A DNA stretch of 64,000 nt, taken from positions 248,127-312,126 of the forward strand of contig CAVTTS010000010.1 of the NCBI GenBank assembly GCA_963737785.1, given 5' to 3'. Below the pieces are notes generated by a model. It saw only the letters and a program-made list of their open reading frames with translations. It did no database searches and was not told where the DNA came from. Origin of the DNA: an uncultured Actinomycetes bacterium. Its GTDB lineage: Bacteria > Actinomycetota > Actinomycetes > Mycobacteriales > Jatrophihabitantaceae. A program made the position numbers and the translations under genes. Below are positions 7,854-54,157 of the stretch, piece after piece (the first letter of the stretch is position 1; each line of letters begins with the position of its first letter).

Positions 7854-7865
7854 AGGCTACCCGCG

Positions 7866-7935
7866 AATCTTGATGCGTATGCGTCGCTATAGCGGAGTAT
7901 GCGTATCGGCGTCCGGACGCTGATACGCCGAAGGG
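7866..7935. repeat. Isolated copy of the GATAC/GTATC palindromic repeat family (a near-perfect palindrome GCGTATCGGCGTCCGGACGCTGATACGC)
   Basis: Sequence cttgatgcgtatgcgtcgctatagcggagtatgcgtatcggcgtccggacgctgatacgcc shares motifs (gatgcgtatgcgtcg, gtatcagcgtcc) with the array at 16468-16870. Confidence 0.55.
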
Positions 7936-7968
7936 CCGGCCCCCGCTGGTGCGGGAGCCGGCCCTTCG
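7931..7968 (-). terminator. Putative intrinsic terminator downstream of rpoC
   Basis: GC-rich inverted repeat agggccggcccccgc...gcgggagccggccct just after the rpoC stop. The downstream tract is only weakly U-rich. Confidence 0.35.
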
Positions 7969-7980
7969 AGCGATCTGCGA

Positions 7981-11889
<3,909 letters not shown>

Positions 11890-11988: not shown

Positions 11989-15462
<3,474 letters not shown>

Positions 15463-15723
15463 GGACTACTGAGCGGGCCGATCCGCTGCCTTGGGCACCA
15501 CGAAGCAGACCCTTTACGGGCCGCGGGGTGTCGGAGGGCAGCGCAACACAGCAGTCTAGCCATCTTGGGCAGGGCGACGCAAGGCCACCCCCTGTAGGCG
15601 CATGAAAAGGGTGGCTCACATACCCGCCGACGTCAAGCACCGCGGCTCAAAGTCTTGCGGACGTGTCCGGTCCAATCAGTACAAAATGGCGCATCCGGTG
15701 GCCCGTGTCGGGCTTTGGCGGCG

Positions 15724-16488
15724 CTACGGCTGGGGTTCGCGATCCGGTGCGACGCCTGGTTGTTCGCTCGCAGCGAGCACGTAGAGCCACGGCTCGCGCG
15801 CTCCGTCGACGTGGTCCAGGCTCAATAAAGTCCACGGCGAGCCGTCGATCACCGCCCGTAGCTCCGGCGCGCGCCAGTAGGTGAAGTGGCGCGCGACGTC
15901 GAGGCGCTCGGTCGTCCAGCCGTCTCCGTCGCCCTCTTTCACGGTGAACGCCAGGATGCCGCCGGGGCGCGTAGCCGCGGCGGCTTTGCTCAGCGCGTCG
16001 CGCAGCTCGTCGCGGGTGAGATGCAGCAGGACGGCGAAGGCCACCACCGCGTCGTACGGGCCGCCGAAATCGTCCGTCACGAGATCGAGCCGATCGGCAG
16101 CCTGGCCGCTCGCGCGCATCAGATCGACGAAGGCCTGCGTGCCATCGGTGCGACGGACGTGCAGTCCGCGCTGCTCGAGGGCGGTGGCATCGCGGCCCGT
16201 CCCGCTGCCCAGTTCGAGGACGTGTGCGCCGGGTGGTGTGCGCGCGGCGACCTCGTCGAGCAGGGCCGCCATCGCCGGGGTCGGATGGGTGGACGTCAGG
16301 TCGGCGTAGGTCTGCGCAGCCCGTTCGTAGGAGGCGATCGTGGCGCGGTTGGTGTTTTCCGTCGGCGCCGGGTCGTGGCCGTCAGTCACCGCCCCAGCGT
16401 CCCAGATGGTGGCAGGCCTGCGCGCGGACCGGTCGGACCCGGGCCTGGTCCGAGATGCCGCTGGACCCTGATATTCATGCGTCGTCAT
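15724..16488 (-). CDS. Class I SAM-dependent methyltransferase
   Basis: Motif I VLELGSGTG. The annotated N-terminus runs into the palindromic repeat array, so the real start is probably internal, for example the GTG at about 16389 (VTDGHDP...). Confidence 0.7.
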   Translation of the reverse strand: MTTHEYQGPAASRTRPGSDRSARRPATIWDAGAVTDGHDPAPTENTNRATIASYERAAQTYADLTSTHPTPAMAALLDEVAARTPPGAHVLELGSGTGRDATALEQRGLHVRRTDGTQAFVDLMRASGQAADRLDLVTDDFGGPYDAVVAFAVLLHLTRDELRDALSKAAAATRPGGILAFTVKEGDGDGWTTERLDVARHFTYWRAPELRAVIDGSPWTLLSLDHVDGAREPWLYVLAASEQPGVAPDREPQP

Positions 16489-16870
16489 GGCGGCGCATAG
16501 GTATCAGCGTCCCGGTGTGGCGGCGGCGCGGAGTGGATCTTGATACGTATGCGTCGTCATGACGTCGCATAGGTATCAGGGTCCGACTCGTGGCCGCGGG
16601 CGCGAAGTGGATCTTGATATCTATGCGTCGTCATGGCGGCGCATGGGTATCAGCGTCCCGCTCCCGCCAAGCACCGAAGTGGATCTCGATACGCATGCGT
16701 CGTCATGACGTCGGTTCGGTATCAGCGTCACGGTGTGGCGGCCGCGCGAAGTGGTCTCGATACGCATGCCTCGCCATGACGGCGCATAGCTATCAGCGTC
16801 CCGGTGTGGCGGCGGCGCGGAGTGGATCTTGATATCTATGCGTCGTCGTGGCGGCGTATCGGTATCAGCG
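16468..16870. repeat. Tandem array of six ~72-bp units. Each unit is a ~36-bp imperfect palindrome (GATAYNYATGCGTCGTCATGRCGNCGCATRGGTATC) plus a ~36-bp conserved linker (AGCGTCCCGGTGTGGCGGCGGCGCGGAGTGGATCTT)
   Basis: Palindrome copies start at about 16470, 16542, 16613, 16688, 16760 and 16830. The first and fifth linkers are identical. The array lies between a divergent gene pair. It is not CRISPR-like because the linkers are conserved repeats, not unique spacers. Confidence 0.85.
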
Positions 16871-16967
16871 TTCCGCGGTCTGCCGTGTCGGTGGGCGATG
16901 GATGATCTTCGCAGCGCGTATCGGGGTTATCCACAGGCGCGGGTGGGGGCTTTGCAGGGATTCGTGA

Positions 16968-17657
16968 GTGTGCCAGGGTAGCCAGATGGCCCGGTCGATC
17001 CTGTCTGTGTTGATCTTGGGCATGATCATGGTTTTGTCAGGGTGTGGGGGTAGCCCGAAGCAGGTGCCGTTCACTCCGTCCACGACCTACGACCCGCCGC
17101 CCGGCCCGTCCACGTCAGGCAACCCCGGTTCATCACCGGCGCCCACGGGCCCGGCGTCCGCAGCGACCGGAATCCCCGCCGACGTGCCGACGGTCGCGAC
17201 GAACCCCACCGTCGCCGGCGAGAGACCTCCTGTGCCACCGCCGATGGTCCACACCCAAACCGGCGCCATCACCTTCGCCGAGTTCTTCATGAAGACCGTG
17301 GATTGGGAGATCGCAACCGACGACAACCACTACGTCAAGCACTACTTCGCGTCGACGTGCGCCCAGTGCATCGCGATCGCCGCGGTCGCAGACAACCACG
17401 CCCGCGACGGTCTTCACTCTGAGGGCGGTCGCTCCACGCTCGTACGCGCCGCGATGGGGTCTCGCAAGGATCTGTTCGGTGCGGAGTTGACCGTCGACGT
17501 GTACGTCGCCACGTCCGCTTTGGCCGTGGTAAACGCGTCGGGCACCGTGGTCTCCGGCGATCCGGCGTATCCGGACTATCACGAGCAGCTTCTGTTGAAA
17601 TGGGGTGACGCCGGATGGGTGGTCGTCGCAGCGCAGGGTACGACAGACGGCAATTGA
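16968..17657 (+). CDS. Lipoprotein with a Pro-rich linker, unknown function
   Basis: 229 aa. Signal peptide plus lipobox LSGCGG, then a Pro/Thr-rich linker and a globular C-terminal domain. Confidence 0.6.
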   Translation: MCQGSQMARSILSVLILGMIMVLSGCGGSPKQVPFTPSTTYDPPPGPSTSGNPGSSPAPTGPASAATGIPADVPTVATNPTVAGERPPVPPPMVHTQTGAITFAEFFMKTVDWEIATDDNHYVKHYFASTCAQCIAIAAVADNHARDGLHSEGGRSTLVRAAMGSRKDLFGAELTVDVYVATSALAVVNASGTVVSGDPAYPDYHEQLLLKWGDAGWVVVAAQGTTDGN

Positions 17658-17695
17658 GCCCCCGCCCAACGCGACGCGCGCTCGTCGTCGCGTTC

Positions 17696-18589
17696 ATGAC
17701 TCTCATCGATTTCCTTATCCCCTGGGCGGCACCGCCAACTGCCGTCGCAGTGTCGATGACCGCCGCCGCGGGCTCGAACGCGACCTGCAACGCGTCCGCG
17801 TCCCAAACCGTGTATGGGGGGAACTCGGGCTACTTGGAAAACGGGACGTGTGACGCTCCGGCGCCGGATACGTCGGTGCCGGGGTTGCCGTCGCGGGTGG
17901 TCGATTGCGGGTACGGGACACCGGCCGAGAACGGGGCGCAGAAGCTGTGCGGATCGGGGCTACCGGACTGCCCACCCACACTGACCGACCCGACACCCCA
18001 CCTGTTCCTGAGCCAGATCCAGATCGGTACCGGCTGGGTCACCACCAGCGCCTGGTGTCCCGGCGACCCCCAACCCATACCGCTCGCCGACTCCCTGCGA
18101 GCCGAAGCCCTGAAACTCCTGACCCCCGTCGCGATCGGCACCACCGCCGGCGGCCACGGACTGGTCAACCTCGAACAACTCTTCTGGGCCCAAACCACCA
18201 CCACCGTCACCCTCGGCACCGTCACCCTCCTGGGCATCCCCATCACCCTGCGCGTCACCTTCACCTCCGCCACCTGGAACTTCGGCGACAACCACACCGA
18301 CCGCACCACCACCCCCGGCCGCCCCTACCAACCCGGCATCTGCCACACCAACCAATGCCCCATGTTCTACGGCCACACCTACACCACCACCGGACCCCAC
18401 ACCGTCACCCTCACCATCACCTGGACCGGCCAATTCCACCTCACCACCGGCCCCTGGACCCCCATCCCCGGCGCCCTACCCGGACCCACCGCCACCACCA
18501 CCGTCCACCTCTGCCAAGCCCGCGCCGTCCTCCTCCCACCCACCGGACCCATCCCCACCAACCCCACCACCACCCCCACCAACTGCTGA
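17696..18589 (+). CDS. Secreted Thr-rich, Cys-containing hypothetical protein
   Basis: The track ORF 17615-18589 overlaps the previous gene, so the likely start is Met28 (MTLIDFLIPWAAPPTAVAVS, a signal-like sequence). Multiple Cys residues. The C-terminal half is rich in TxT beta-strand motifs (VTLTITWTGQFHLTTG). Confidence 0.45.
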   Translation: MTLIDFLIPWAAPPTAVAVSMTAAAGSNATCNASASQTVYGGNSGYLENGTCDAPAPDTSVPGLPSRVVDCGYGTPAENGAQKLCGSGLPDCPPTLTDPTPHLFLSQIQIGTGWVTTSAWCPGDPQPIPLADSLRAEALKLLTPVAIGTTAGGHGLVNLEQLFWAQTTTTVTLGTVTLLGIPITLRVTFTSATWNFGDNHTDRTTTPGRPYQPGICHTNQCPMFYGHTYTTTGPHTVTLTITWTGQFHLTTGPWTPIPGALPGPTATTTVHLCQARAVLLPPTGPIPTNPTTTPTNC

Positions 18590-18594
18590 GGGAT

Positions 18595-18740
18595 CCCGGA
18601 TATGCATGCGTCGCCCCGGCGCCGGCTGGATATCAGCGTCCAACGACGATCCACGCAGACACGCACAGGCGTGGGGCCGCGAGTGGATCGTGATATCCAT
18701 TCGACGCCATGGCGTCGGATCGGTATCAGCCGGCGGCGCG
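18595..18740. repeat. Two degenerate copies of the same GATAT...GGTATCAGC palindromic repeat family, including a perfect 16-bp palindrome CGACGCCATGGCGTCG
   Basis: gatatgcatgcgtcgccccggcgccggctggatatcagcgtcc and gtgatatccattcgacgccatggcgtcggatcggtatcagcc. Same orientation as the array at 16.5 kb. Together with that array they flank the 16968-18589 gene pair. Confidence 0.6.
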
Positions 18741-18756
18741 CCCGGGGCCAATCCCC

Positions 18757-18796
18757 GGCGCACACGAAAGGGCGGCCCCGCAGATGCGGGACCGCC
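18757..18796 (-). terminator. Intrinsic terminator downstream of rplL
   Basis: Minus-strand hairpin GGGCGGUCCCGCAUCUGCGGGGCCGCCC followed by CUUUCGUGUG. Confidence 0.6.
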
Positions 18797-18850
18797 CATC
18801 GTCGAACCAGCTAGCAACCGGATCGCGCCGTAGGGCGCGATCGGTCGGCC

Positions 18851-19240
18851 TTACTTGACCGTGACGCTGGCGCCGGCACCCTCGAGGGCCGCCTTCGCCT
18901 TCTCGGCAGCTTCCTTGTTGACCTTCTCCAAGACGGTCTTCGGGGCACCGTCAACGAGGTCCTTGGCCTCCTTGAGACCGAGGTTCGTGAGGGTGCGCAC
19001 CTCCTTGATGACCTGGATCTTCTTCTCGCCGGCACCCTCGAGGATGACGTCGAACTCGTCCTTCTCCTCCTCGGCCTCGGCCGGGGCGGCCGGGCCCGCG
19101 GGACCGGCAGCGGCAGCCGCGACCGGCGCGGCGGCGGTGACGTCGAAGGTCTCCTCGAACTGCTTCACGAACTCCGACAGCTCGAGCAGCGTCATTTCCT
19201 TGAACGCGTCGAGCAGGTCGTCAGTGGACATCTTCGCCAT
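18851..19240 (-). CDS. rplL: 50S ribosomal protein L7/L12
   Basis: 129 aa. Canonical L7/L12 sequence ([26 protein letters not shown]...[12 protein letters not shown]). Confidence 0.97.
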
Positions 19241-19296
19241 GGTTGGCGTCCTTTCTTCGATTTCTTGCTGGCCTGGAAGCCGGCAGGTGTTGGTTG

Positions 19297-20058
19297 TTAC
19301 TCCGCCGGCTCGGCGGGAGTTTCGGACGATTCGGCGTCGGTGGCCACGGCCTCCGGTGCCTCGGAAGTGCCGGCCTCGGCGTCAGCCGGGGCCTCATCGG
19401 CAACCGGAGCGTCTTCGGCGCCCGCGTCGACAACGGGAGCGTCGTCGGCGGCCGCGTCGACAACCGGAGCGTCGTCGGCAACCGCATCAGCGGCGTCCGC
19501 GTCGACAGCCGGTGCTGCCGCAGCGGGTTCCGCGGCGACAGCGACAGCCGGCTTCTTCTCTTCGAGGGCCTTGGCCAGACGTGCCATCTGCGACAGCGGC
19601 GCCTGGAACAACCCGGCCGCGCGGGACGGGAGCGCCTTGAGGGCTCCAGCCAGCTTGGCGAGCAGGACCTCACGGGACTCGAGGTCGGCGATCTTGGCAA
19701 CCTCGGCGGCGGTCAGCGACTTGCCGTCGAGGACACCGCCCTTGATCACCAGGAGCGGGTTGCCCCGCGCGAACTCGCGCAGGCCCTTCGCGGCCTCGAC
19801 CGGGTCGCCCTTGACGAACGCGATCGCGGTCGGCCCGACGAGCAGGCTGTCGGCGATCGTCACTCCGGCCTCGGCGGCTGCCCGCTTGGTCAACGTGTTC
19901 TTGACGACGGCGTAGGTCGTGTCGCGTCCGAGGGCCCGGCGAAGCTGGGTGACCTGCTTGACCGACAGTCCGCGGTACTCGGTGATAACCGCGGCGGACG
20001 ACGTGGCGAAGTGATCCGTGATCTCGGCGACCGCGGTGATCTTCTCTGTGCTCGGCAT
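19297..20058 (-). CDS. rplJ: 50S ribosomal protein L10 with an unusual acidic Ala/Asp/Pro-rich C-terminal extension
   Basis: The true start is [17 protein letters not shown] (ATG at 20058 with a GGAGGA RBS). The longer track ORF is upstream read-through. About 253 aa versus the usual ~175 aa, with DDAPVVDA-type repeats. Confidence 0.9.
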
Positions 20059-20357: not shown

Positions 20358-22649
20358 TCAGGCGTCAGCGGCGAGGTCGGTCGCGTAGGTCAGGCCGGCC
20401 GTCGACGAATACGGCTCAGCCCGCAGGGCGCTCGCAAACACGTCGAACGCCGTGGCCGGGTCCATGCTGACGCAGCCGGACGTCGGGCTCAGGCAGGCCG
20501 CCTGCGAGGTGAGCACGCCGGCGAAATCGATGTGATCGGACGCAGTCGCACCGGCCTGGTCGATCGCGGCCCACTGACCGGCCTGGACGGGCAGGTAGAT
20601 CTGCGGCAGCGCGATGATCCGCGTCGGCGCCAGCCCGTGGGCCAGGTCGTAGTAGTTCTGCTGCGTCCAGGTCTTCGAGGCCTGGTTGTCGTCGAGCACG
20701 GTGTCGCAGTTGGCCGCGGTCGAGGTCGGGCAGCCATCCGCCGATCCGTTCTCGACCAGCCGGGCCGGCGTCGACGCGAGGTAGCTCGTCACCCACTGCT
20801 CGGCCTGCGCTTCGCTGCTGCTGAAGCCGGCCTCGATATCGGCCGCACCGACCACCTCGAGCCGCGACGATCCGTGCGCCCGAGCCGGCCCGACGACCTG
20901 CGTCGCCCAGTCGGCGCCGCGCTGCGGGGCCGGGTAACTGGAGAAGTCGCCGTCGTTGTTGGTGCCCAAAGCGATCACGGCCGTCGCGGTCGCCGGTTGG
21001 CAGGACGAGTAGCCGTCGAGGTACGCGTCGATCGCGGCCACCAGCTGCGCGTAGGTCAAGCGAGTGGCCGTCCCGCTCAGCAACACCCCGGGCGTCGTCG
21101 CCGACAGCGGCGCCCGGACCGTCTGCGCTCCGACGTCGAGCAGCACGATCGAGTCGCCGGCCGGACCGCCGATGCCGGCATCGGACGTTGCATCGCTGCA
21201 GCCGAGGCGATTCATCGCAGGCGCGTCGGCCGCCGTTCCCTGCAACGCGCGCAGGTAGTGGCTGGTCGATCGACGGGGGGCCGAACGGCTGAGCACGTAG
21301 CCGACCACGTCGATGGTGATCGTCGCGGTGTCGGCCGATCCGTTGAGCACGCTGAGTTCGCCGTCGGCGCTGACCGGGACCATCACGAGGCTCTGCGTCG
21401 TGACGCCCGGTGAGTACTGGACGCTGGCTGTCTCCGGCGGCGAACCGGCCCCGGCGTACAGGCTCAGGTAGCCGCCGCTCACGCCTGCGGTCACCGTCAC
21501 ATCGGCGAGGACGGCGGCCACATCGGTGCTGGGTAGCGCGCCGACCCCGAGGACGTGGGCGGACGTCGCGCCCAGCGGCGCGACCGCTGACGTCAGGGCG
21601 CGCGCGGCCGGGACCGCCACGACGCTGCCCGCGGCGGTCGCGGTTCCAGCCGACGTGTAGCCCGTGACGACCACCGCGACATCGACCGGCGCGGTGGAGT
21701 CGGTGGCGATGACGATCCGCCCGTCCGGGCCGAGCGGGACGAGTGCGGAATTCGACGCCGACTGGCCGGCATCGAAGTGGACGGCCGATCCGCTGGGATG
21801 AGCGCCGCTTGCGTAGCCGCTCAGGTCACCGGCCGCGGACGGGTTGAGCGCGGTCAACTCGATCGAGACCGCACCACCGGCGGGAATCCCGTCGACGCCG
21901 GCGAGCTGGATCGCTCGGGGCGTGGCGCTGGTGATCGGCCCGGAGCCGTCGATGGCCGTATCGAGCACGGTGTCGCGCGCGACCGGCGCGAAGCCGCCGT
22001 TCGGCAAGTCGGTCGCGCCCGCAGCGGCGCTGGACGCCATCGATCCGCCCGCGAAGTAGCCGGTGACGTCCGCGTACACGTGGGTCGCGGCCGGCGACCC
22101 GTTGTGGACGTCGACCAGTCCGTCCGCCCCGATCGCGACGATCACGAGTCCGGACACGCGGGCCGGGTTCGGTCCGAGTTCGGCCGGCGTCAATGTCGTC
22201 ACGGGATCCGCGGCATTCGGATCGTCGGCCGAGAACACGACCGCGCCGGCCGCGGCACTGTTCGTGACGGCGACGGAGAGGACCACCGCCGAAGCGCCGG
22301 TGCGCGGGACACCCGCGACGCCGGCCACCGCGAAGGAGGCGTACGCGCCCGCCGAGATCGGCCCCTGGGCGCCGACATCGACTCGAGTATCGAGCACGGA
22401 TGTCGGCGGCAACGACGTGAAGCTGCCGGGCAGTAATGCCGTAGTGGCGCCGGGGCTCGAACCGGTCGTCACGCTGTCCACGGTCGCGGCGTTCGACGAC
22501 GATCCGCGCGGGCCGACAACGCCGGAACCGGCGGCACCGGCCGTACCGGCCGCACTCGCCACCGAGTCGACGGCCGCGATCACGACGAGGGCGGCCAGCA
22601 TCGACGACGCGAACGCGCGCAGCCGTCGCCTCCCGGGCCCCGATCCCAT
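20358..22649 (-). CDS. Secreted protein with three tandem ~100-aa beta-rich internal repeats plus a ~290-aa C-terminal domain, unknown function
   Basis: 763 aa. N-terminal signal with an RRRLRAF motif (Tat-like). Three modules share the pattern ...LDTR...G..GVP...AV.L.V....GYF. The C-terminal domain is Cys-containing and non-repetitive. Confidence 0.65.
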
Positions 22650-22702
22650 GTGTGCAGAATACTCCTACACGTCAACTTTGCACTTCACGAAACGGACAGA
22701 AT

Positions 22703-25202
22703 TTATACGCCGAACGTGACGAATGGCGTGGGTTCGTCGACCGACGACACCGCCTCGGCAAGGGCCTCCGCCGAGTCGCGACCCACGGCGAGGCGCCGGT
22801 GGTAGCCGAGCATCGCCTCGGACGCGGCATCGTCTCCGACTCGCGCGACCCCGCTCACGACGGTGCGCGAACCGAGGTGAAGCAGGACGCTGGTCAGCCC
22901 CAAAGCCTCATCGCCGGGACGAATCGTCGCCATCCCCAGCTCGCACGCGGACAACACGACGTGTGGCGCCGCGTGGTCGAGTTCGTGCGCGAACATCGGC
23001 CCGTCCGCCATCCGGATCGAGCTGAACAGCGGGTTCTCCGTCTGGTGCTGACCGTGGGCGGCCACGTGCACGGTCGCGGCCGTCGCCATCGCGGCCGCGA
23101 GTTCGGCCCGAGTCGCGCCGGCCGACACCGTCGCGCCGAGTCGGATGCGGCCGATCTCGGCTACCTCGTGATCCGCGCGGCGCAGGTCGGGACCGGCGAG
23201 CGCGATCAGCTCGCCACCGGCCGACCCGGCGGCGCGCGCCGTCACCCAGGCCGTCGCGGAGGGAGTGACGACGACCGGTTCGCCGCGCCGCGACGGGATC
23301 GACGTCCAGGGCAGGGCAGCCAGCAGGCCGGTCGGCACGACGACGAGCCGGTGGCCGCCCGCGCGCAGCGGGCGCACCAACAGCTCGTCGAGCCTCACCA
23401 GCGACCGGGAGAGTGATGCCGACGCCGCCCCGCGGATCGCGGCCGGCAGCCGCTCGTAGGCGAGCACGTCGAGGTCGGCGCGAGCTCGCCGGACCAAGGC
23501 ATCGACGTCGTCGGCGTCCCCGAGCTCGTGCAGAGTCACGCGTCGCGCATCGAGTCGCAGCCCGTGCAGACGTCCACCGACCCGGACGTACGCCACCAGG
23601 ACGGCGTCGGCGTCCGCGACCGCGGCCCGGATCGCGGCCGACGATGCCGGTTGCTGCACGTGACCGCCGCCGGGCAGCGTCCAACTACGGCCTTTGATCT
23701 GTCGCTCCAACTCGGCCCGCCGCGGCTGCAAGGTGGGCGCCTGGCTGGCATCGGCCCGGACGGTCTCGACGAGCTGGCGCAGTTCGGCCAGCAGATCGGC
23801 CGTCTGCGGATCGGCCGGCGGCCGGATCGCCGACAAGCGGCTCGAGACGGCCCGGCCACGCTCGATTGCGGCCAGCACGGCCGTCGGCGACCCGCCGTCG
23901 ACCGCCATCGAGACGTCCAGCTCGGCGAGCCGCGAGCCGTGCGCGGCACTCGCGGTGCGCAGGTCCATACCGCCAAAGCTGGCCTGGTAGGTCGCCAGCT
24001 CGTCGAGACCGGCGCGGACATGTCGGCGCGCCGAATCCCGCCGGCCGGCCGTCTCGTCGAGCCGGGCGCGTACGTACCGATCGTGCAACCGGACCGAGAT
24101 CGGATCACCGGCCGCCGGCGGGTCGGCGACGAGCTCGGCCGCCGCGTCGAGCTGACCGACGGCCAGCAGGCACTCGGCGGCGACCAACGCGGCCGTTCGG
24201 GCGCGGCCCGACAATCCCTGCGTGCGAAGCTCGGCCGCAGCCGCAGCGCCACCGGCGCGAGCCGCGCGGGCGGACGACCGGTCGACAGATCGCCTTGGAG
24301 CAGGACCAGCTCGGCGTCTCGCGCCAGCGATCGTTGCCGCGCCGCCGGAATCGATCGCGGGCCCGGCCGGCGAACCGGCGAGCGGCCGCGACGTCGCCGG
24401 CCAGCAACGCGCACTCGGCTCGGGCCAGTTCGGTCTCGGCAACGTCCTGGGCCAGCCGCTCTTCGCGAAGATGGCGCCGGCGCGGGCCAGGGCGTTGTCG
24501 GCGTCGCGGGCCAAGCCGGCATCGAGCAGGACACGCGCCCGATCGAGCAGCGGAATGCCCTCGGAAACCCCCTCGCCGTACACCAGGGCCTCGTCCATGA
24601 CGGCCAGCGCGCGGGCAGATCGCCAGCGACGAACTCGGCGTACCCGAGGTTGTGCAGCGCCTTGAACCGCCACATGTTGACGCCGCGGTCGGCGGCGAAG
24701 TCGGCGGCCCGCGTGAACATCTCGCGGGCCGGTAGCACTTCGCCGCGCAGCAGTCGGATGTAGCCCGCGTTCAGCAGGATCGAGTAGTGGTCGTTGTCGT
24801 CGGCGGATCCGATGATCGCGATCGCGGCGTCGCTGCTGTCCTGCGCCGACGCGAGGTCACCGCTGCGGAAGGCGATCAACGCGTGCTGGCTGTGCGCTCG
24901 GACCGTCAGAGCTCGGGTCGTCGAGGTGGGACGAGATGCCGTTTCGCCTCGGTCAGCGTGACCAGACCGCGCTCGGCACCGAAGACCTCAGCCTCGGAAT
25001 AGGCGCGACTGATCAGAATGGCCGCCAGGACCCCTTCGACCGCCGATGGCTCGGCCTCGCCCGGGCTCGGCGTGATCAGGGCCTGGGCCCGGCGCAGTAT
25101 CGAGAGCGCGCGGATCGGATGCCCGTGGTTGTGCTCAGCGACCGCGCGGGTCTGCAGCTCGATGGCCCGATCGAGCAGAGCCGTCGCAGAACCACGGGTC
25201 AT
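22703..25202 (-). pseudogene. TPR-repeat CHAT-domain (caspase-like) protease gene, interrupted by at least two frameshifts
   Basis: Three consecutive reading frames (25202-24906, 24879-about 24640, 24673-22703) encode TPR-like helical repeats and then a CHAT domain with catalytic His and Cys motifs (HVAAHGQH ... VVLSACELG). Junctions are at about 24900 and about 24640. Confidence 0.7.
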
Positions 25203-25230
25203 GGCGTCAGGTTGTCATACTCGCGCGGCG

Positions 25231-25746
25231 TCAGAGTTCGAGCGACGGCGTGATCACCGGCGGACGCCCGCTGTCGTCGGGCGCTCGCAGCACGAACTGG
25301 GCCAGTCCGCGGGGCACGTCCTCGAAGACGAACCGGCCGTCGGCGTCCGCGACCGCGTGCAGGACGCCGCCGACGATGCGCAACTCGACCTCGAGCCCCG
25401 CACCGGGCGCGGCCCAGCCGTCGAGCCGGACGCGCTCGGCGCCGGCCGCGGTGATCGTCACCATCGTCGTGAGACTCGGGCTCGTGAACGTGACGGTCTG
25501 CACCTCCGTCGCACCGAGCTCACCGCCGCGCGCTCCGAGCAACTCGGACTCCAGTCGCTGCAGCTTCGCGATCTCGGCGTGCAGCGCGTCGAGGGTGATC
25601 CCGAACTGGATGCGCTCGATGAGCCCGTCCGGGACCGGATCGGCCAGGTCGTACAGCGCCGCCACACGACGCAGCGTTGCGACGTCGTCGGCGTCGAGCT
25701 GGCCGGACGCGAGAGTCTCCACGCTCGGACGGTCGTTGTCGGACAT
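25231..25746 (-). CDS. Hypothetical cytoplasmic protein translationally coupled to the ECF sigma factor (candidate anti-sigma or regulatory partner) with an Ig/carboxypeptidase-regulatory-like C-terminus
   Basis: The real start is MSDNDRPS, whose ATG overlaps the sigma factor stop (TGATG). About 171 aa. No TM segment and no HxxxCxxC zinc anti-sigma motif. The track ORF extends upstream in an overlapping frame. Confidence 0.5.
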   Translation of the reverse strand: MSDNDRPSVETLASGQLDADDVATLRRVAALYDLADPVPDGLIERIQFGITLDALHAEIAKLQRLESELLGARGGELGATEVQTVTFTSPSLTTMVTITAAGAERVRLDGWAAPGAGLEVELRIVGGVLHAVADADGRFVFEDVPRGLAQFVLRAPDDSGRPPVITPSLEL

Positions 25747-26330
25747 CAGGCCTCCCATTGAGGATCGTCGATCAGTCGAGCACGGAGTTTGGCCAGGCAT
25801 CGGCCGCGGGTCGGGCCGATGCTGCCCACCGGCATACCCAATGCCGCCGCCAGCGTCCCGTAATCGGGTCGGTCGGAGAACGCGATGACGCGCAGGAGTT
25901 CGCGACACCGGACCGAGAGCGTCGAGATGTGTTCCCAGAGACGCGATTGCTCGGACTCGCGCAGCACCGTGGGTTCGGGGGACGCCTCCAAGGAGGCCAC
26001 CAGGTCGTCGGGCGCGAAGTCGTGCGGGTCGGCCCGCTTGTCGACCCGGGCGACCCGCCACGCCTCGCGGCGCGCGGTCACGATGAGCCACTGCAGAACC
26101 GCCCGCGAGTCGCTGATCGATTCGCTGTTGCGCACCAGCGCGAGCCAGGCCGCCTGGACGACGTCTTCGGCCGAGCCCTGGGAGATGTTCTGCGCCCGAA
26201 CGGTGTGCCACATGATCGGCGTCAGGAGCGCGACGAGCTCGCCCATCTTCGCCTCGTCCCCGGCGCGGAAGCCGGCGAACAGCGCGCCCGCGCGGGCGGC
26301 CAGGGTGTCCGGGAGCGGTTCGGCGATCAT
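25746..26330 (-). CDS. ECF (extracytoplasmic function) RNA polymerase sigma-70 family factor
   Basis: About 195 aa starting at MIAEPLPDTL. Region 2 (DVVQAAWLALVRN) and region 4 HTH (RELLRVIAFSDRPDYGTLAAALGMPVGSIGPTRGRCLAKLR). Its ATG overlaps the upstream S8 peptidase stop (ATGA). Confidence 0.8.
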   Translation of the reverse strand: MIAEPLPDTLAARAGALFAGFRAGDEAKMGELVALLTPIMWHTVRAQNISQGSAEDVVQAAWLALVRNSESISDSRAVLQWLIVTARREAWRVARVDKRADPHDFAPDDLVASLEASPEPTVLRESEQSRLWEHISTLSVRCRELLRVIAFSDRPDYGTLAAALGMPVGSIGPTRGRCLAKLRARLIDDPQWEA

Positions 26331-28123
26331 GCCGGACGCACCATCGTGGGCACCTGCGCGCTGACGGCCGTCCAGGCCCGGTTCACGCAACTGGCCGGGT
26401 CGATCGCGTCGAGACCGCCCGCTTCGAGGATTGCCTCGACGATCTGGCCGGCCAGGATGGGCGCCGAGAACGAGGTTCCGCTCCAGGTGCCGAATCCGCT
26501 CGCGAAGTTGTCGGGGTCGATCGTCGAACGAACGCCTTCGCCGGGCAGGTAGAGCCGCTCGCTCGCCTGGTCGGCACCGTTCATGGTGATCGGGAAGGTG
26601 CTCACGATCGCGGACCCCATGCGATGGCAGCTGACCCACTCGCCGGCGTTGCTGAATAGGGCGATCGTCTGGCCGTCCGGGTTGAGGGCGGCGACGCTCA
26701 TGATCGGAACCTCGTCCTTGCGCGGAGTCTTGACCAGGCCATCGGCCCACGGCGTGAACGCCGCCGGATACATGCAGCGGAACGTCGCGTCATTCCCGGC
26801 CGCGACGACGATCGCGACACCGCGCTGGGCCAGCGCTTCGAGCGGGGCCAGCAGCAGATGATCGAAGAGCGAATCCTCGGGCTGTTCGTGGTAGTACCCG
26901 AACGACATCGAGACGACGTCGATCAGTTCCTCGGGACGGCCGAGCTGCTGGGCTTCGGTCTGGCGGATGAGCAGCGCGTACGCGGCGTGCATCAGGTCGG
27001 ATTCGGCGATGACACCGTCGGCCCCCATGATGCGAACGGCCAGGATGTTGGCATCCGGGCAGAGCTGCCGGATCAAACCGGCGATGAAGGTGCCGTGTCC
27101 CGAGTCGGTGTCGAGCTCGCCGAGCAACGGGCTGTCGACCACGCCCGTTCCTTCGGAGTTGCCGGCCGCACCGGCGATGCCCATGGGTTCCCCCGCAGCG
27201 GTCGGAGTGCGGTCGACGATCCCGTCGGGGAGCCACGGGTGCTCGCCGGCGCCGGTGTCGAGAACCGCGACGACCGGACGCCGCATGCCCAGATCGTGGC
27301 GACGGTGCGGCTCGCGGCCGATCCACGCCACCGGCTCGCGACCGCCGTGGCCGGGGGCGCCGTACTCGACGACGCCCGAGCCGTTCGCAAACGGAGACCC
27401 GTTCGCGAAGGGCGAGCCGTTCGCGAACGGCGAGCCGTTCGCGAACGGAGCCGCGAACATCAGGTGGTCCAGACCGACTTCCTGAACGCTGGCCGACGGC
27501 GAGTCACGCACGATGCTGCGGAATGTCTGCAGAACCGGCCACGAATCGATCGGCGGGGCCGGCTCGTTCGACACCGCGACCAGTCGAACGCGGTTGACCG
27601 GGGTCGGATATTGCTCGATCGAGTTCGTCCGCGCGTACTCGTGGATCTTGCCGTGTTCCTCGTCGACCTCGAGGCGAAGGCCGTGCTTCTCGGCGGCCGA
27701 CTTCAGCGCGTTGTAGCTGTCGCCGCCCGGCACCGCGCCACGCACGAGCAGCTGGTCGGCCACATAGACCGTCGAACGAGGCTTGGGATCGCCGGGGATC
27801 TGCACGGCGGTGAGCGGATCGAGGACGCGAGCGTTGTATTTGACGAGGACGTCGTAGGGCGGCGAGATCACCACGACATCGTTCAGCGGCTCCGGGCGTT
27901 GGCAACCGTCGGTCGGCGGGTTGACGTCGGGCATGGTGACCTCGTTACTCGGGGATGCGGCAGGTGCGTCTGGGAGCGTAGGGCCGTTCGGTCCCGCGCC
28001 ACCAGGGTCGTGTGTGCTCATCGTCCGTAATGAGCGCACTGTCGGCGCCCTGATACACGCGCCCGCCGATGTATCACCGCAAACGCCGGCCGCTCCTCCA
28101 AACGTGCGGCGTTCGCGTCGCAC
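26327..28123 (-). CDS. S8 family subtilisin-like serine peptidase, apparently intracellular, with a four-fold GSPFAN repeat linker
   Basis: Catalytic triad motifs VAVLDTG (Asp), HGTFIAGLI (His) and GTSFSAPILAG (Ser). No signal peptide. The likely start is MSTHDPGG at about 28021. There is a ~190-aa N-terminal domain before the GSPFANGSPFANGSPFANGSPFANGS linker. Confidence 0.85.
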   Translation of the reverse strand: MRRERRTFGGAAGVCGDTSAGACIRAPTVRSLRTMSTHDPGGAGPNGPTLPDAPAASPSNEVTMPDVNPPTDGCQRPEPLNDVVVISPPYDVLVKYNARVLDPLTAVQIPGDPKPRSTVYVADQLLVRGAVPGGDSYNALKSAAEKHGLRLEVDEEHGKIHEYARTNSIEQYPTPVNRVRLVAVSNEPAPPIDSWPVLQTFRSIVRDSPSASVQEVGLDHLMFAAPFANGSPFANGSPFANGSPFANGSGVVEYGAPGHGGREPVAWIGREPHRRHDLGMRRPVVAVLDTGAGEHPWLPDGIVDRTPTAAGEPMGIAGAAGNSEGTGVVDSPLLGELDTDSGHGTFIAGLIRQLCPDANILAVRIMGADGVIAESDLMHAAYALLIRQTEAQQLGRPEELIDVVSMSFGYYHEQPEDSLFDHLLLAPLEALAQRGVAIVVAAGNDATFRCMYPAAFTPWADGLVKTPRKDEVPIMSVAALNPDGQTIALFSNAGEWVSCHRMGSAIVSTFPITMNGADQASERLYLPGEGVRSTIDPDNFASGFGTWSGTSFSAPILAGQIVEAILEAGGLDAIDPASCVNRAWTAVSAQVPTMVRPA

Positions 28124-40061: not shown

Positions 40062-40317
40062 GAGCTGCCACGCCGCTGCCGCCGAGATCGACGCCCGCGG
40101 CAGTCAGCGCCGACCGCACGAGCTTACACGACCACAGGCCGTCCGATCTGCACCGGTAAGTGAGCGCCCCGCAGCCTCGGCCGACATCATGCGCGCGAAC
40201 AGACTGCTTGGCATCGCCGCCTGTCCGGGGTGTCAGGCTACGTGACGCGACGCGAGCGGCTGAAAGGTGCCATGACGTCGCATACAATCGTGAGAGCATC
40301 TGAGTGGAGGCGAGCCG

Positions 40318-51417: not shown

Positions 51418-53066
51418 ATGACGCAGCCCCCCACGACCCCCGGAACGGGTCCGCTGGACCCGACGCCGGCCGCGTGGACGGCCGACCAGCCGGCCAACGG
51501 TCACGGCTATCAGCCGCCGGCCGGTCAGCAGTATCAACCCCCGCAGCCATACCAGCCGGCGCAGCCATACCAGCCGGCGCAGCCATACCAGCCGGCGCAG
51601 CCATACCAGCCGGCGCAGCCATACCAGCTGGCGCAACCCAGCCGACGTACGCGCCGAATCCCTACCAGGTCGGCGCCGGCTACGCACCGGGGATGCCGAC
51701 CTACCAGCCCGCGCCGCCGTACCCGCCGCAGCAGTCCGGTGGCGGTTATCCGCCGGCCGGGGCGCCGATGTACCAGCCGCAGCAGCCGACCGGCTCGTGG
51801 GACTACCTCGGCGCCGTGCAGCCGACCTGGACACCGCCCCGCAAGCGTCGCGGGCCGGCGCTGCTCGCGGCCGCGGTCGCGGTCGTGCTCGTCGGCGGTG
51901 GCACGGCGACCTACGTCGCCGTTTCGCAGCAGTCCGGCGGTGGCGGCAGCAGCCCGCAGGCCGCCGTCAAGACGTTCGTCGGCGACCTGAACAAGTCGGA
52001 CCTTCTCGGCGTGCTCGACGACCTGGCCCCCGGCGAGCGGGACGCGCTGCTCAATCCGTTCGAGGACGAGATCACCCAGGAGAAGCGGCTGCACGTGCTG
52101 AGGTCGAACGCCGACGCGTCGAACGTGACCGCATTCAACGTCTCGGCGACCGGGCTGACGTTCCAGAGCCAGGACCAGGTCGTGAACGACCACGTGCGCG
52201 TCGTCCGGTTGACCGGCGGAACGATCACGGTCAACACCGACCTGTCGAAGCTGCCGCTCACCGACGAATTCGTCAAGGCGCTGTTCCCGCACGGCCTGCC
52301 ACCGGCCAGCGGACCGGCGACGGTCGATCTCGCCCAAGTGGTACGCATGACCGGCGAGCCGATCCAGATCGCGACGCAGAAGGTCGGATCGTCCTGGTAC
52401 CCGAGCATCCTCTACACGGTCGCGTCGTACGACATGGTTGCCGGCGGCGGGGCGCCGACCGCGAGCGACTACATCGGCGCGGCCGGGGCCGCGTCCGCGC
52501 AGGATGCGGTCACCCAGTTCATCGACGCCCTCGCGGCGGGCAACGGCCAGAAGGCCGTCGAACTGACCTCTCCCGACGAGATGGCCGTGCTCCACGACTA
52601 CGGCACCGAGGTCGCGAGCGCGCTCGGCAACAGCAGCAGCGGCTTCGGTTCGGCCGTCAAGATCAGCAATCTGCAGCTCACGACGACCGACATCACCGGC
52701 GGCAAGCGAGTGCTCTTCCACAGCGCGACCGTCACCGAAGACGGTCAGTCGGTGACGATCACGCTCGACAGCGACTGCATCCAGATCGACGCGTCGGGGA
52801 CGACCAAGAAGTACTGCGGCAACGATCTGGTCAACGAGCTCGAGTCGTCGGGTGCGTTCTCGCAGAAGCTGACGCCCGAGCAGGTCACCGCGTTCGAGCA
52901 TCTCGCCCAGGGACTGCCGAACATCGGCGTCGACACCAGCGAGTCGGCCGGCAAGTGGTACGTGAACCCGCTTCGATCGATCATGGACACCTCGACCGAG
53001 TTGTACAGCGGCCTGCAGAACGACGACCTGATCGTCCTGCTGAAGCTCGCCCAGCAAATCCACTAG
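51418..53066 (+). pseudogene. Membrane-anchored protein with a Pro/Gln-rich repeat N-terminus (QPYQPA x5), one TM helix and a large extracytoplasmic domain. There is a frameshift inside the repeat tract
   Basis: Frame 51418- (MTQPPTTPGT...QPYQPAQPYQPA...) switches at about 51630 to frame 51357- (...PTYAPNPYQVGAGYAPGMPTYQ...LLAAAVAVVLVGG...). An 18-bp tandem repeat cagccataccagccggcg repeats five times. Confidence 0.55.
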
Positions 53067-53133: not shown

Positions 53134-54157
53134 GTGGCCGAGCGCTCAGTGGGAGCGGCCGCGGGACGCGACGACATCGGCGCGGGACGCGAAAACATTG
53201 GCGCGGGACGCGACGACGTCGGCGTGGGACGCGACGACATGGCGCGGGACGCGACGACATCCGCCGCGGCCTGCTCTACGGGACGAGCGCCTATTTCCTG
53301 TGGGGGCTGTTCCCGCTCTACTGGCCGTGGCTGAAGCCGGCCGGCGCGGTCGAGATCCTCGCCATGCGGATGATCTGGTCGTTGGTCTTCGTGGCCCTGC
53401 TGTTGTGGCGGACGAACAGCTGGGGCGCGACGCGAGCGGTCATCGCCGACCGTCGCAAACGCTGGCTGCTGTCGCTCGCCGCGGTGCTTCGTGACGGTCA
53501 ACTGGGGCGTCTACATCTGGGGCGTCAACGCCGGCCACGTCGTCGAGACCAGCCTCGGCTACTTCATCAACCCGCTGTTCACGATCCTGCTGGGCGTGGT
53601 GGTGCTGCATGAGCGGCTGCGTCGGCGTCCAGTGGGCGGCGGTCGGCATCGCGTCGTCGGCGATCGTCGTCCTGACCATCGACTACGGCCGGCTGCCCTG
53701 GATCGCGCTGACGCTGGCCGCGTCGTTCGGTCTGTACGGCTTCGTGAAGAAGCGGGTCGTCGGCCGGCGCGCTCGAGTCGCTCGCGATCGAGACCGGGAC
53801 GATGGCGTGCCCGCACTGATCACGATCGGCGTCATCGCCGCGAACGGGTCACTGGTGTTCGGACGTCACGGCGTCGGCAACACGGCGCTGCTCGTAGGCA
53901 CCGGCGTCGTCACGGCGATCCCGTTGCTGTTCTTCGGCGCGGCGACCCGCCGGTTGCCGCTGTCGGCGATGGGCATGCTGCAGTACCTGACCCCGATCCT
54001 GCAGTTCGGGGTCGGCATCGGAATCGATCACGAGAAGATGCCGCTCGCGCGGTGGGCCGGCTTCGGTCTGGTCTGGATCGCGCTGGTCGTCCTCACCGTC
54101 GACGGCGTCCGGGCATCCCGCCGTCCGGCCGAAGAACCCGCGGGCGCACCGGGCTGA
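53134..54157 (+). pseudogene. rarD: RarD (EamA/DMT superfamily) permease with an N-terminal heptad-repeat extension, interrupted by about four frameshifts
   Basis: RarD signature LLYGTSAYFLWGLFPLYWPWLKP..., [18 protein letters not shown] and [15 protein letters not shown] lie in frames 53124-, 53491- and 53609-. The N-terminal repeat is in frame 53134-. Confidence 0.65.
53150..53280. repeat. 21-bp tandem repeat, about five to six units (GGCGCGGGACGCGACGACATC), encoding a heptad repeat G-A-G-R-D-D-I at the 5-prime end of rarD
   Basis: The units ggcgcgggacgcgacgacatc, ggcgcgggacgcgaaaacatt, ggcgcgggacgcgacgacgtc, ggcgtgggacgcgacgacatg and gcgcgggacgcgacgacatc are directly visible. The last unit is missing one g. 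Confidence 0.8.

Follow-up and report, generated by a model that had tools for sequence, protein, structure and literature searches.

Repetitive extragenic palindromes (REPs) are short imperfect palindromes of non-coding DNA, found mostly 3' of genes as single, paired or clustered copies (Di Nocera et al. 2013, PMC3733652); actinomycetes lie outside the coverage of that survey. Palindromic intergenic repeats are well described in Proteobacteria and much less so in high-GC actinomycetes beyond the tuberculosis rho-independent terminator (TRIT) of Mycobacterium, a sequence-conserved palindromic stem-loop without U-tract that is present in 147 copies per genome, is tied to gene termini (centred ca. 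8 nt before stop codons) and is bidirectional through its palindromy (Gardner et al. 2011, PMC3152330). Stem-loops are also known targets of insertion sequences (ISs) of the IS1182 family (PMC5678879). Described here is a tandem array of six 50-bp imperfect palindromes in a 64-kb stretch of an uncultured high-GC actinomycete (contig CAVTTS010000010.1, positions 248,127 to 312,126; 68.8% GC; the whole stretch is called the window below). The repeat represents a small family, not described before, of intergenic palindromes in a Jatrophihabitans-like actinobacterium; the array itself probably arose by local amplification, into a cluster resembling the bacterial interspersed mosaic elements (BIMEs), of a non-coding palindrome that is specific to the lineage and of the REP or mycobacterial TRIT kind. 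It is thus a new sequence family of a familiar repeat kind and not a new system; no new biological mechanism follows on present evidence.

The array (16459–16876, + strand) consists of six head-to-tail units with a period of 71–74 bp. Tandem Repeats Finder (TRF) gave a single strong array (16476–16876; period 72, 5.6 copies, 77% matches, score 389; repeat family D1), and a 36-nt IUPAC palindrome pattern matched six + strand sites at ≤3 mismatches (starts of the 36-nt core: 16470, 16542, 16616, 16688, 16759 and 16831) and none in 100 dinucleotide shuffles. The array is therefore real, its occurrence is far above chance, and the six-unit, ca. 72-bp palindrome array of the first-pass annotation is confirmed. 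Each unit is a 50-bp imperfect palindrome followed by a linker of 21–24 nt; inverted-repeat extension and pair-by-pair inspection gave 23 pairs around a central CATG, with the consensus GGATCTTGATA..CATG..TATCAGsGTCC (fuller form GGAyCyTGATA...CATG...TATCAGsGTCC) and the termini GGATCTTGA...TCAAGATCC. The 36-bp palindrome reported earlier was correctly centred on CATG but is the inner part only. The pentamer GRAGT usually stands directly 5' of the palindrome and belongs to the conserved unit, so that the truly variable linker is only ca. 17 nt.

Palindromes of the six units are 72–92% identical to one another. Two core types alternate along the array (A = CGTCATGGCGGCG, B = CGTCGTCATGACGTC), with a super-period of two units (ca. 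145 bp, three times; repeat family D2). The units were placed by pair inspection, folding and a covariance model: u1 at 16463–16512 (type A), u2 at 16535–16584 (type B, its core identical in the soil metagenome contig L062), u3 at 16609–16658 (type A), u4 at 16681–16730 (degenerate type B), u5 at 16752–16801 (degenerate) and u6 at 16824–16873 (type A), all on the + strand. Linkers l1 and l5, which follow u1 and u5, are identical, as had been noticed before; l4 is near-identical to both, and l2 and l3 are essentially unalignable, their length being nevertheless kept at 21–24 nt. Successive unit lengths of 72, 74, 72, 71 and 72 bp break the reading frame between units, and the region is non-coding and carries no codon-position signal in GC (GC at third codon positions, GC3); its GC content is 62% vs 69% for the window.

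Three copies outside the array were recovered with nhmmer (18588–18643, 18681–18737 and 7865–7915; E values 3e-14, 4e-16 and 2e-6, respectively), and the covariance model recovered all three. Copy d1 (18592–18641, + strand) is degenerate and begins 2 nt past the stop codon of a secreted-protein gene; d2 (18685–18734, + strand) lies in tandem with it at 93-bp spacing and has the perfect core CGACGCCATGGCGTCG, so that the two degenerate copies announced near 18595–18740 are both borne out. Copy r (7865–7928, + strand) is situated just beyond the rpoC terminator hairpin (7929–7968, − strand), 8.5 kb from the array with rpoBC in between; a related palindrome had been given there as 7866–7935, which holds as to its presence, the actual structure being one full solitary copy (7865–7914) with a 14-nt inverted partial arm (7915–7928). 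No further copy was found by the covariance model in the other 53 kb. The window thus holds nine copies at three loci, all within 11 kb and all in the same orientation. A possible half-element relic, CATGACGTCGCATA (40270–40285, + strand; 14 of its nt match the u2 right arm exactly; nhmmer E 0.018), may be a chance match. A possible collapsed seventh unit (GATCTTCGCAGCGCGTATCGG..., 16905–16935, + strand) was read by eye with low confidence and was missed by nhmmer and by the covariance model; it overlaps the 9-mer TTATCCACA (16927–16935), which lies between the array and the start of a lipoprotein gene and is a perfect E. coli-type DnaA box, probably fortuitous, since ca. 0.5 chance occurrences are expected per window.

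The palindromes fold better when read on one strand. Over the nine copies, non-Watson–Crick positions are G.T on the + strand in 35 cases and on the − strand in 7; in u3 the + strand has 4/4 of them in the 36-nt core and 6/7 in the 50-mer. The free energy of the RNA hairpin is better on the + strand in eight of the nine copies, with a + strand range of −13 to −32 kcal/mol (+ and − strand: u3, −31.2 and −13.4; u6, −22.0 and −4.9; r, −22.5 and −5.4 kcal/mol); the array folded as a whole gives −271.9 kcal/mol (z = −13.0) on the + strand and −192.7 (z = −7.3) on the − strand. Covariance model scores agree in sign for all six units (bits, + vs − strand, u1–u6: 66.9/48.8, 74.6/46.7, 76.9/43.9, 65.2/25.5, 56.4/15.1, 66.7/29.3). 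The change from T.T in type B to T.G in type A looks compensatory on the + strand only. GC skew was too weak to give the direction of replication and, with it, the leading or lagging position of the favoured strand.

Members of the family were found in at least three other actinobacterial sequences, which disposes of the idea that the repeat might be unique to this locus; the related 50-bp palindromes keep termini, length and CATG centre. In contig L062, a DinB/mycothiol-type gene has CGACCTTGATACCCCTGCGTCGTCATGACGTCCCAGCGGTATCAAGATCG at its 3' end; termini and an asymmetric 15-nt core are identical to those of u2/u4. Jatrophihabitans sp. DSM 45814 (L048) has two diverged palindromes (TTGGTATACC..CGTCGCCATGGCGAC..GGTATACCAA), one 13 nt past the rpoC stop codon and the other after rplA. 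In the contig L047 of a metagenome-assembled genome (MAG; contig_27824, ERZ25039533), an IS1182-family element interrupts a palindrome just after rplL in its central CATG; removal of the IS and of one CATG restores the 50-bp palindrome GGATCTTGAGGCCGCAGTTGACC-CATG-GGTCGCGACGGACCTCAAGATCC, preceded by GAAGT, so that length, termini, centre and 5' flank are as in the window units and the inner stem is different. In the 13-member alignment the 23-pair helix is 80.6% paired vs 71% with shuffled and 29–44% with slid partners, both-sided changes occur in 18 of the 23 pairs, and none of 500 shuffles reached the observed values; pairing of the stem is maintained by compensatory changes. Covariation together with conserved termini shows that the family is defined by its structure and termini and is older than this genome.

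Wider scans added little. The left-arm pattern gave 46 matches in 185,579 species genomes (one per species), all single, in unrelated phyla and none with a right arm; chance alone would give about as many, and none is taken as a true member. A first scan of JGI metagenomes with a pattern of both arms gave no match; a second, looser one gave one true member, L062. No match was obtained in a viral scan with the repeat pattern, nor by blastn of the array and of the idealised palindrome against plasmids and phages; Rfam gave no family at the gathering cut-off and, at E ≤ 10, only tRNAs and generic miRNA-precursor hairpin noise.

The IS of L047 (10435–12343) encodes a 534-aa transposase (NF033551), lies 44 nt after rplL and sits at the exact dyad centre of the palindrome with a 4-bp target site duplication (TSD) CATG; the hairpin centre is thus the insertion target of an IS1182-family element in this relative. 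A 14-nt identity (GAAGTGGATCTTGA) beside the IS raised the converse possibility that the repeat is a miniature inverted-repeat transposable element (MITE) derived from IS1182. This was rejected: in sister ISs on Rhodococcus and Pseudarthrobacter plasmids the terminal inverted repeat (TIR) begins with GAGCCTGTTGCAG and 4-bp duplications are made, so that the GGATCTTGA arms are the target of the IS and not its ends; no TSDs flank the units of the window. The case resembles the stem-loop targeting of IS1272/IS1182 (Wan et al. 2017, PMC5678879) in that the IS occupies the very dyad centre of a member of the family, directly downstream of rplL, and differs in that an ordinary 4-bp CATG duplication was made and the stem-loop was not replaced; the window itself is without any IS. 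The usual rplL terminator hairpin is absent from the L047 genome.

Compared with the REPs and BIMEs of Enterobacteria and Pseudomonas (PMC3733652), the elements of the window are likewise non-coding imperfect palindromes, mostly 3' of genes, single, paired or clustered and with short conserved linkers; r, d1/d2, the member in L047, both members in L048 (L048a/b) and that in L062 all lie just 3' of genes. Stems with G.T pairs that are better on one strand and a role as IS insertion target are shared as well, and by analogy the hairpins would plausibly protect transcript ends at the RNA level. These traits together (non-coding palindromes near gene ends in all three arrangements, one-strand G.T stems, IS targeting) fit the REP class. 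Linker classes (l1 = l5, close to l4) and alternating A/B core types are BIME-like. The element differs by its length (50 bp vs the usual 20–40 bp), by its ends, where the REP tag GTAG or CGTC is missing (termini GGATCTTGA / TCAGsGTCC; CGTC occurs only inside the apical stem), by the single orientation of the cluster, all six units scoring higher on the + strand whereas BIMEs alternate, by an apparently low, local copy number in the window and by its high-GC actinomycete host. A Pfam scan of the open reading frames (ORFs) of the window found no cas gene, transposase (including Y1_Tnp), REP-associated tyrosine transposase (RAYT) or integrase.

With TRIT (PMC3152330) the repeat has in common the sequence-conserved stem-loop without U-tract, the order Mycobacteriales, the tie to gene termini and the bidirectionality of a palindrome; the likeness is judged by description and not by consensus, and a TRIT-like position relative to the stop codon holds for d1 only. 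TRIT differs in being reported from Mycobacterium only, in its copy number and in its position, and no tandem arrays have been described for it. The earlier reading as MIRU-like or REP-like is retained in its second half only. Mycobacterial interspersed repetitive units (MIRUs), from the loci with variable-number tandem repeats (VNTRs) of Mycobacterium, are intergenic tandem units of 40–100 bp in an actinobacterium, into which a period of ca. 72 bp would fall; they are non-palindromic, lie between the genes of operons and carry short coupled ORFs, whereas the units of the window are hairpins with no ORF and no GC3 signal, shift frame from one to the next with periods of 71–74 bp and stand between divergent genes and not inside an operon. 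MIRUs are thereby ruled out. A dif-like reading was rejected on sequence features. The established actinobacterial operators (HAIR, CsoR, ARG box and others) are not known to fit the spacing.

The array and d1/d2 lie within an accessory insertion. The order of genes on the minus strand is nusG-rplK-rplA-[S8 peptidase/CHAT island]-rplJ-rplL-[...]-rpoB-rpoC-Tad genes. The rplL of the window has no relative at ≥90% identity in a collection of 15 billion proteins, the best named relatives being found among Jatrophihabitans species and "Pseudonocardiales" MAGs. The closest relatives that share the flanking island (L055–L060, ca. 90% rplL identity) have rpoB 450–520 bp after rplL. By blastn against L055, L057 and L059, homology ends at the rplL terminator (18801–18770) and resumes from 15646 leftwards, upstream of rpoB; the segment 15647–18769, missing from these relatives also by their gene maps, is therefore a 3.1-kb insertion, which answers the call of the first-pass annotation for a comparison with relatives. 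On its right stands the canonical intrinsic terminator of rplL (18770–18797, − strand; 12-bp GC stem and T-tract), kept in relatives, and on its left the start of the rpoB upstream/leader region (15604–15646, − strand) with a promoter-like TTGACG, conserved in relatives.

The insertion contains a methyltransferase gene, the array, genes of a DUF6318 lipoprotein and a secreted protein, and d1/d2. The methyltransferase is of class I, S-adenosylmethionine-dependent and of small-molecule type (15724–16389, − strand; Pfam Methyltransf_23/12/25/11). In the database its gene (P0001, 221 aa) is called from GTG 16389, 70 nt to the left of the array; the spill of the array into this gene that had been reported concerns only the longest ORF (ATG 16488) and was dropped. 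The lipoprotein (16986–17657, + strand; Pfam, exact protein P0122, lipobox LSGC in the translation) is followed by a secreted Thr/Pro-rich protein with a weak PKD-like match (17696–18589, + strand; Pfam). This pair comprises, as stated before and in agreement with the GC3-filtered ORF map, the only plus-strand genes in a minus-strand block of ca. 33 kb, and it is indeed flanked by the repeats, the array on the left and d1/d2 on the right. The C-terminal 236 aa of the secreted protein (window 17876–18589) are also encoded, with 100% identity, on a different NCBI/ENA contig of 37,504 bp (P0242), unlike the lipoprotein, methyltransferase and rplL, which occur on one contig each; part of the gene seems to have been duplicated or transferred recently. 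GC3 of the genes of the inserted block (15724–18589) is 0.81–0.85 vs 0.90–0.95 for neighbouring core genes, consistent with recent acquisition. A distant homologue of the secreted protein (39% identity) was found in L066 (3–997), where the C-terminus of the preceding gene product resembles the DUF6318 lipoprotein and stop and start codons of the two genes overlap; the recurrence of this order indicates that the pair forms a conserved module. The pair of L066 has no hairpin repeat at its 3' end, and no relative of the cassette protein was found in viral contigs.

The spacer between rplL and rpoB holds an IS1182-family element in L047, a small ORF in L048, an asparaginase gene and an Mce operon in L049, MFS/LysR genes and Mce in L052/L053, and ABC and acyl-CoA dehydrogenase genes in L061; this diversity marks it as a recurrent insertion hotspot in the lineage. 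In L050 (contig_61575, from the same sequencing project as L047, ENA ERZ250395xx), the 67-kb MAG contig ends 30 nt after rplL (10391–10420), which suggests that the assembly broke in repetitive or variable DNA of this spacer.

We infer the history, possible transcription and cellular role of the repeats as follows. An ancestral element would already have been situated downstream of rplL, as in L047, and slippage or unequal recombination of a block of two units would have raised its copy number; the cluster would then have served as entry point for, or have been split by, the lipoprotein/secreted-protein pair, either of which would explain six upstream and two downstream units of the same orientation. 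If transcribed rightward together with the cassette, the repeats would form a stack of stable RNA hairpins at the 5' end and two hairpins at the 3' end, which, by analogy with enterobacterial REP hairpins, would guard both ends of the transcript and make it harder for convergent transcription to run on into rplL. At the DNA level, cruciforms or hairpins would be targets for recombination and IS insertion. The units are not classical terminators, since they have no U-tracts and mycobacterial RNA polymerase ignores such hairpins in vitro (PMC3993855), and since r and d1/d2 lie beyond the canonical terminators of rpoC and rplL.

Several observations weigh against a REP- or TRIT-like repeat amplified on the spot. 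The array is found between divergent gene starts and not at a 3' end, and hairpins without U-tract fail to stop mycobacterial RNA polymerase in vitro (PMC3993855). Copy number looks low and local, with nine copies within 11 kb vs hundreds of dispersed ones for classical REPs, and the scans of species genomes and JGI metagenomes gave only one clear extra member. The end tag is missing, no RAYT was found in the window, and no dedicated transposase or binding protein for the element was found in the window. Many wobble positions are common to the copies and so were inherited from one master copy; the G.T strand bias is in good part such inheritance and represents few independent events. The favoured strand is also inconsistent elsewhere, L062 favouring the sense strand of its gene and L047 and L048b neither strand. 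A scan of 15400–19300 for sigma-70-like promoters found none, which is uninformative for actinobacterial promoters.

A more far-reaching reading, which we hold to be possible and rather unlikely, takes the 50-bp elements as an unrecognised actinobacterial class of structure-defined mobile or recombinogenic hairpins that mark the ends of the highly transcribed units rplKA, rplJL and rpoBC and serve as landing pads for IS1182-family elements and cassette capture. Its members would have a constant length, constant termini (GGATCTTGA/TCAAGATCC), CATG at the dyad centre and an inner stem free to vary; the six-plus-two arrangement would be an array that a capture of this kind has split, and a dedicated protein reading the element in folded or duplex form would account for the phasing, which stays close to 72 bp although the linkers have turned over.

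A protein is central also to the improbable proposal that a dimeric DNA-binding protein uses each palindrome as its operator or as a centromere-like site and that the six phased sites (ca. 72 bp, ca. 7 helical turns) assemble a nucleoprotein complex that would control the divergent methyltransferase/lipoprotein promoters or local topology, e.g. as a gyrase or nucleoid-associated-protein site downstream of the highly transcribed rpl/rpo operons. The spacing, fixed at 71–74 bp though l2 and l3 have diverged beyond alignment, and the location in a divergent promoter region speak for such a complex; between the window and L062, moreover, sequence and not only pairing is conserved in the asymmetric core CGTCGTCATGACGTC and at the termini CTTGATAC/GTATCAAG, and in three genomes the rplA, rplL and rpoC transcription units have family members clustered at their ends. 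This clustering is in part a sampling artefact, since all loci were fetched around rplL. Known operators are far shorter than 50 bp; in L047 the inner stem is wholly replaced while pairing, length and termini persist, and this freedom of the inner stem, with the strong covariation, points to structure rather than base-specific contacts. A strand-asymmetric G.T pattern would be meaningless for binding to a duplex, and no regulator, ParB-like or other DNA-binding gene is adjacent.

The strand-specific quality of the hairpins would suit a hairpin-bounded mobile cassette, for which we likewise see little probability: direct-oriented hairpins would be ends that a trans-acting recombinase reads as folded single strands (cf. 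integron attC sites and the palindrome-associated transposable elements of the IS200/IS605 kind), and extra units would be remnants of cassette turnover. A repeat-bounded mobile cassette had been among the first suggestions for this locus; it is borne out in so far as, against the nearest relatives, the entire block is inserted DNA, with repeats at its right edge and same-orientation copies, six on the left and two on the right, bracketing the gene pair. The 100% identical 236 aa of the secreted protein on the second contig, where rplL, methyltransferase and lipoprotein are missing, also speak for mobility, although that copy breaks inside the gene and not at a repeat. The left edge of the insertion (15647) is without repeat, as is the 3' end of the homologous pair in L066, and the solitary copies r, L062 and L048 are without associated cassettes. 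No tyrosine or HUH recombinase is encoded within the 64 kb. Integron attC sites and clusters of attC sites lacking an integrase (CALIN) were rejected: core sites (RYYYAAC...GTTRRRY) are absent from the consensus, no ORF lies between the six units, and the window encodes no integrase. A conserved cleavage tetranucleotide is missing as well.

That the array is a plain minisatellite (VNTR), a neutral and functionless product of replication slippage at a palindrome-containing unit with the other copies due to local duplication only, is improbable: the two-unit super-period, the identical linkers l1/l5 and the confinement of every copy to 11 kb speak for it, and yet the palindromes are much better conserved than the linkers, relatives in other genomes show compensatory changes, and r lies 8.5 kb away (at 7865) across rpoBC. 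A degenerate CRISPR array or a MITE from the IS1182-family element of the relative can be dismissed almost entirely, the superficial pattern of 36-bp repeats with 36-bp spacers being contradicted by 8–28% divergence of the repeats, by homologous or identical linkers (three of them near-identical) and by the lack of cas domains in the window, so that the earlier exclusion of CRISPR was right, and the 14-nt identity adjoining the IS being explained by the TIR and TSD data above.

The locus, on the preferred reading a locally amplified REP- or TRIT-like repeat, documents a new family: length, termini and dyad centre are conserved, the stem evolves by compensatory changes, and in a relative an IS1182-family element targets the hairpin centre. 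Accessory DNA has repeatedly entered the rplL–rpoB spacer in this lineage, beside two marker genes that rank with the most conserved and the most used; the variability of the spacer matters for synteny of the rpoB region, for MAG assembly breaks and possibly for VNTR typing.

Further features were noted in the neighbourhood. A conserved accessory island of this lineage between rplA and rplJ (20358–28123), an unusual break in the ribosomal protein cluster, is present also in L048, L050, L053 and L055; it contains genes of a CHAT-domain protein, of large proteins without Pfam match and of an S8 peptidase, and in relatives that of a sigma-70-like protein. The 3' part of rplJ (L10; 19371–19504) has a 30-bp (10-codon) tandem repeat of ca. 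3.3 copies; L10 of this group is long (195–263 aa, RL10_C domain), and the repeat may encode a repeated acidic/Ala/Pro tail. A near-perfect 18-bp repeat (5.2 copies, 98% matches) was found at 51542–51635 within a 569-aa ORF without Pfam match, and ca. 1.5 kb beyond it a 21-bp repeat (5.2 copies; 53160–53269). The S8 peptidase ORF has an 18-bp tandem repeat of four copies (27378–27450) that is itself palindromic (GAGCCGTTCGCGAACGG...).

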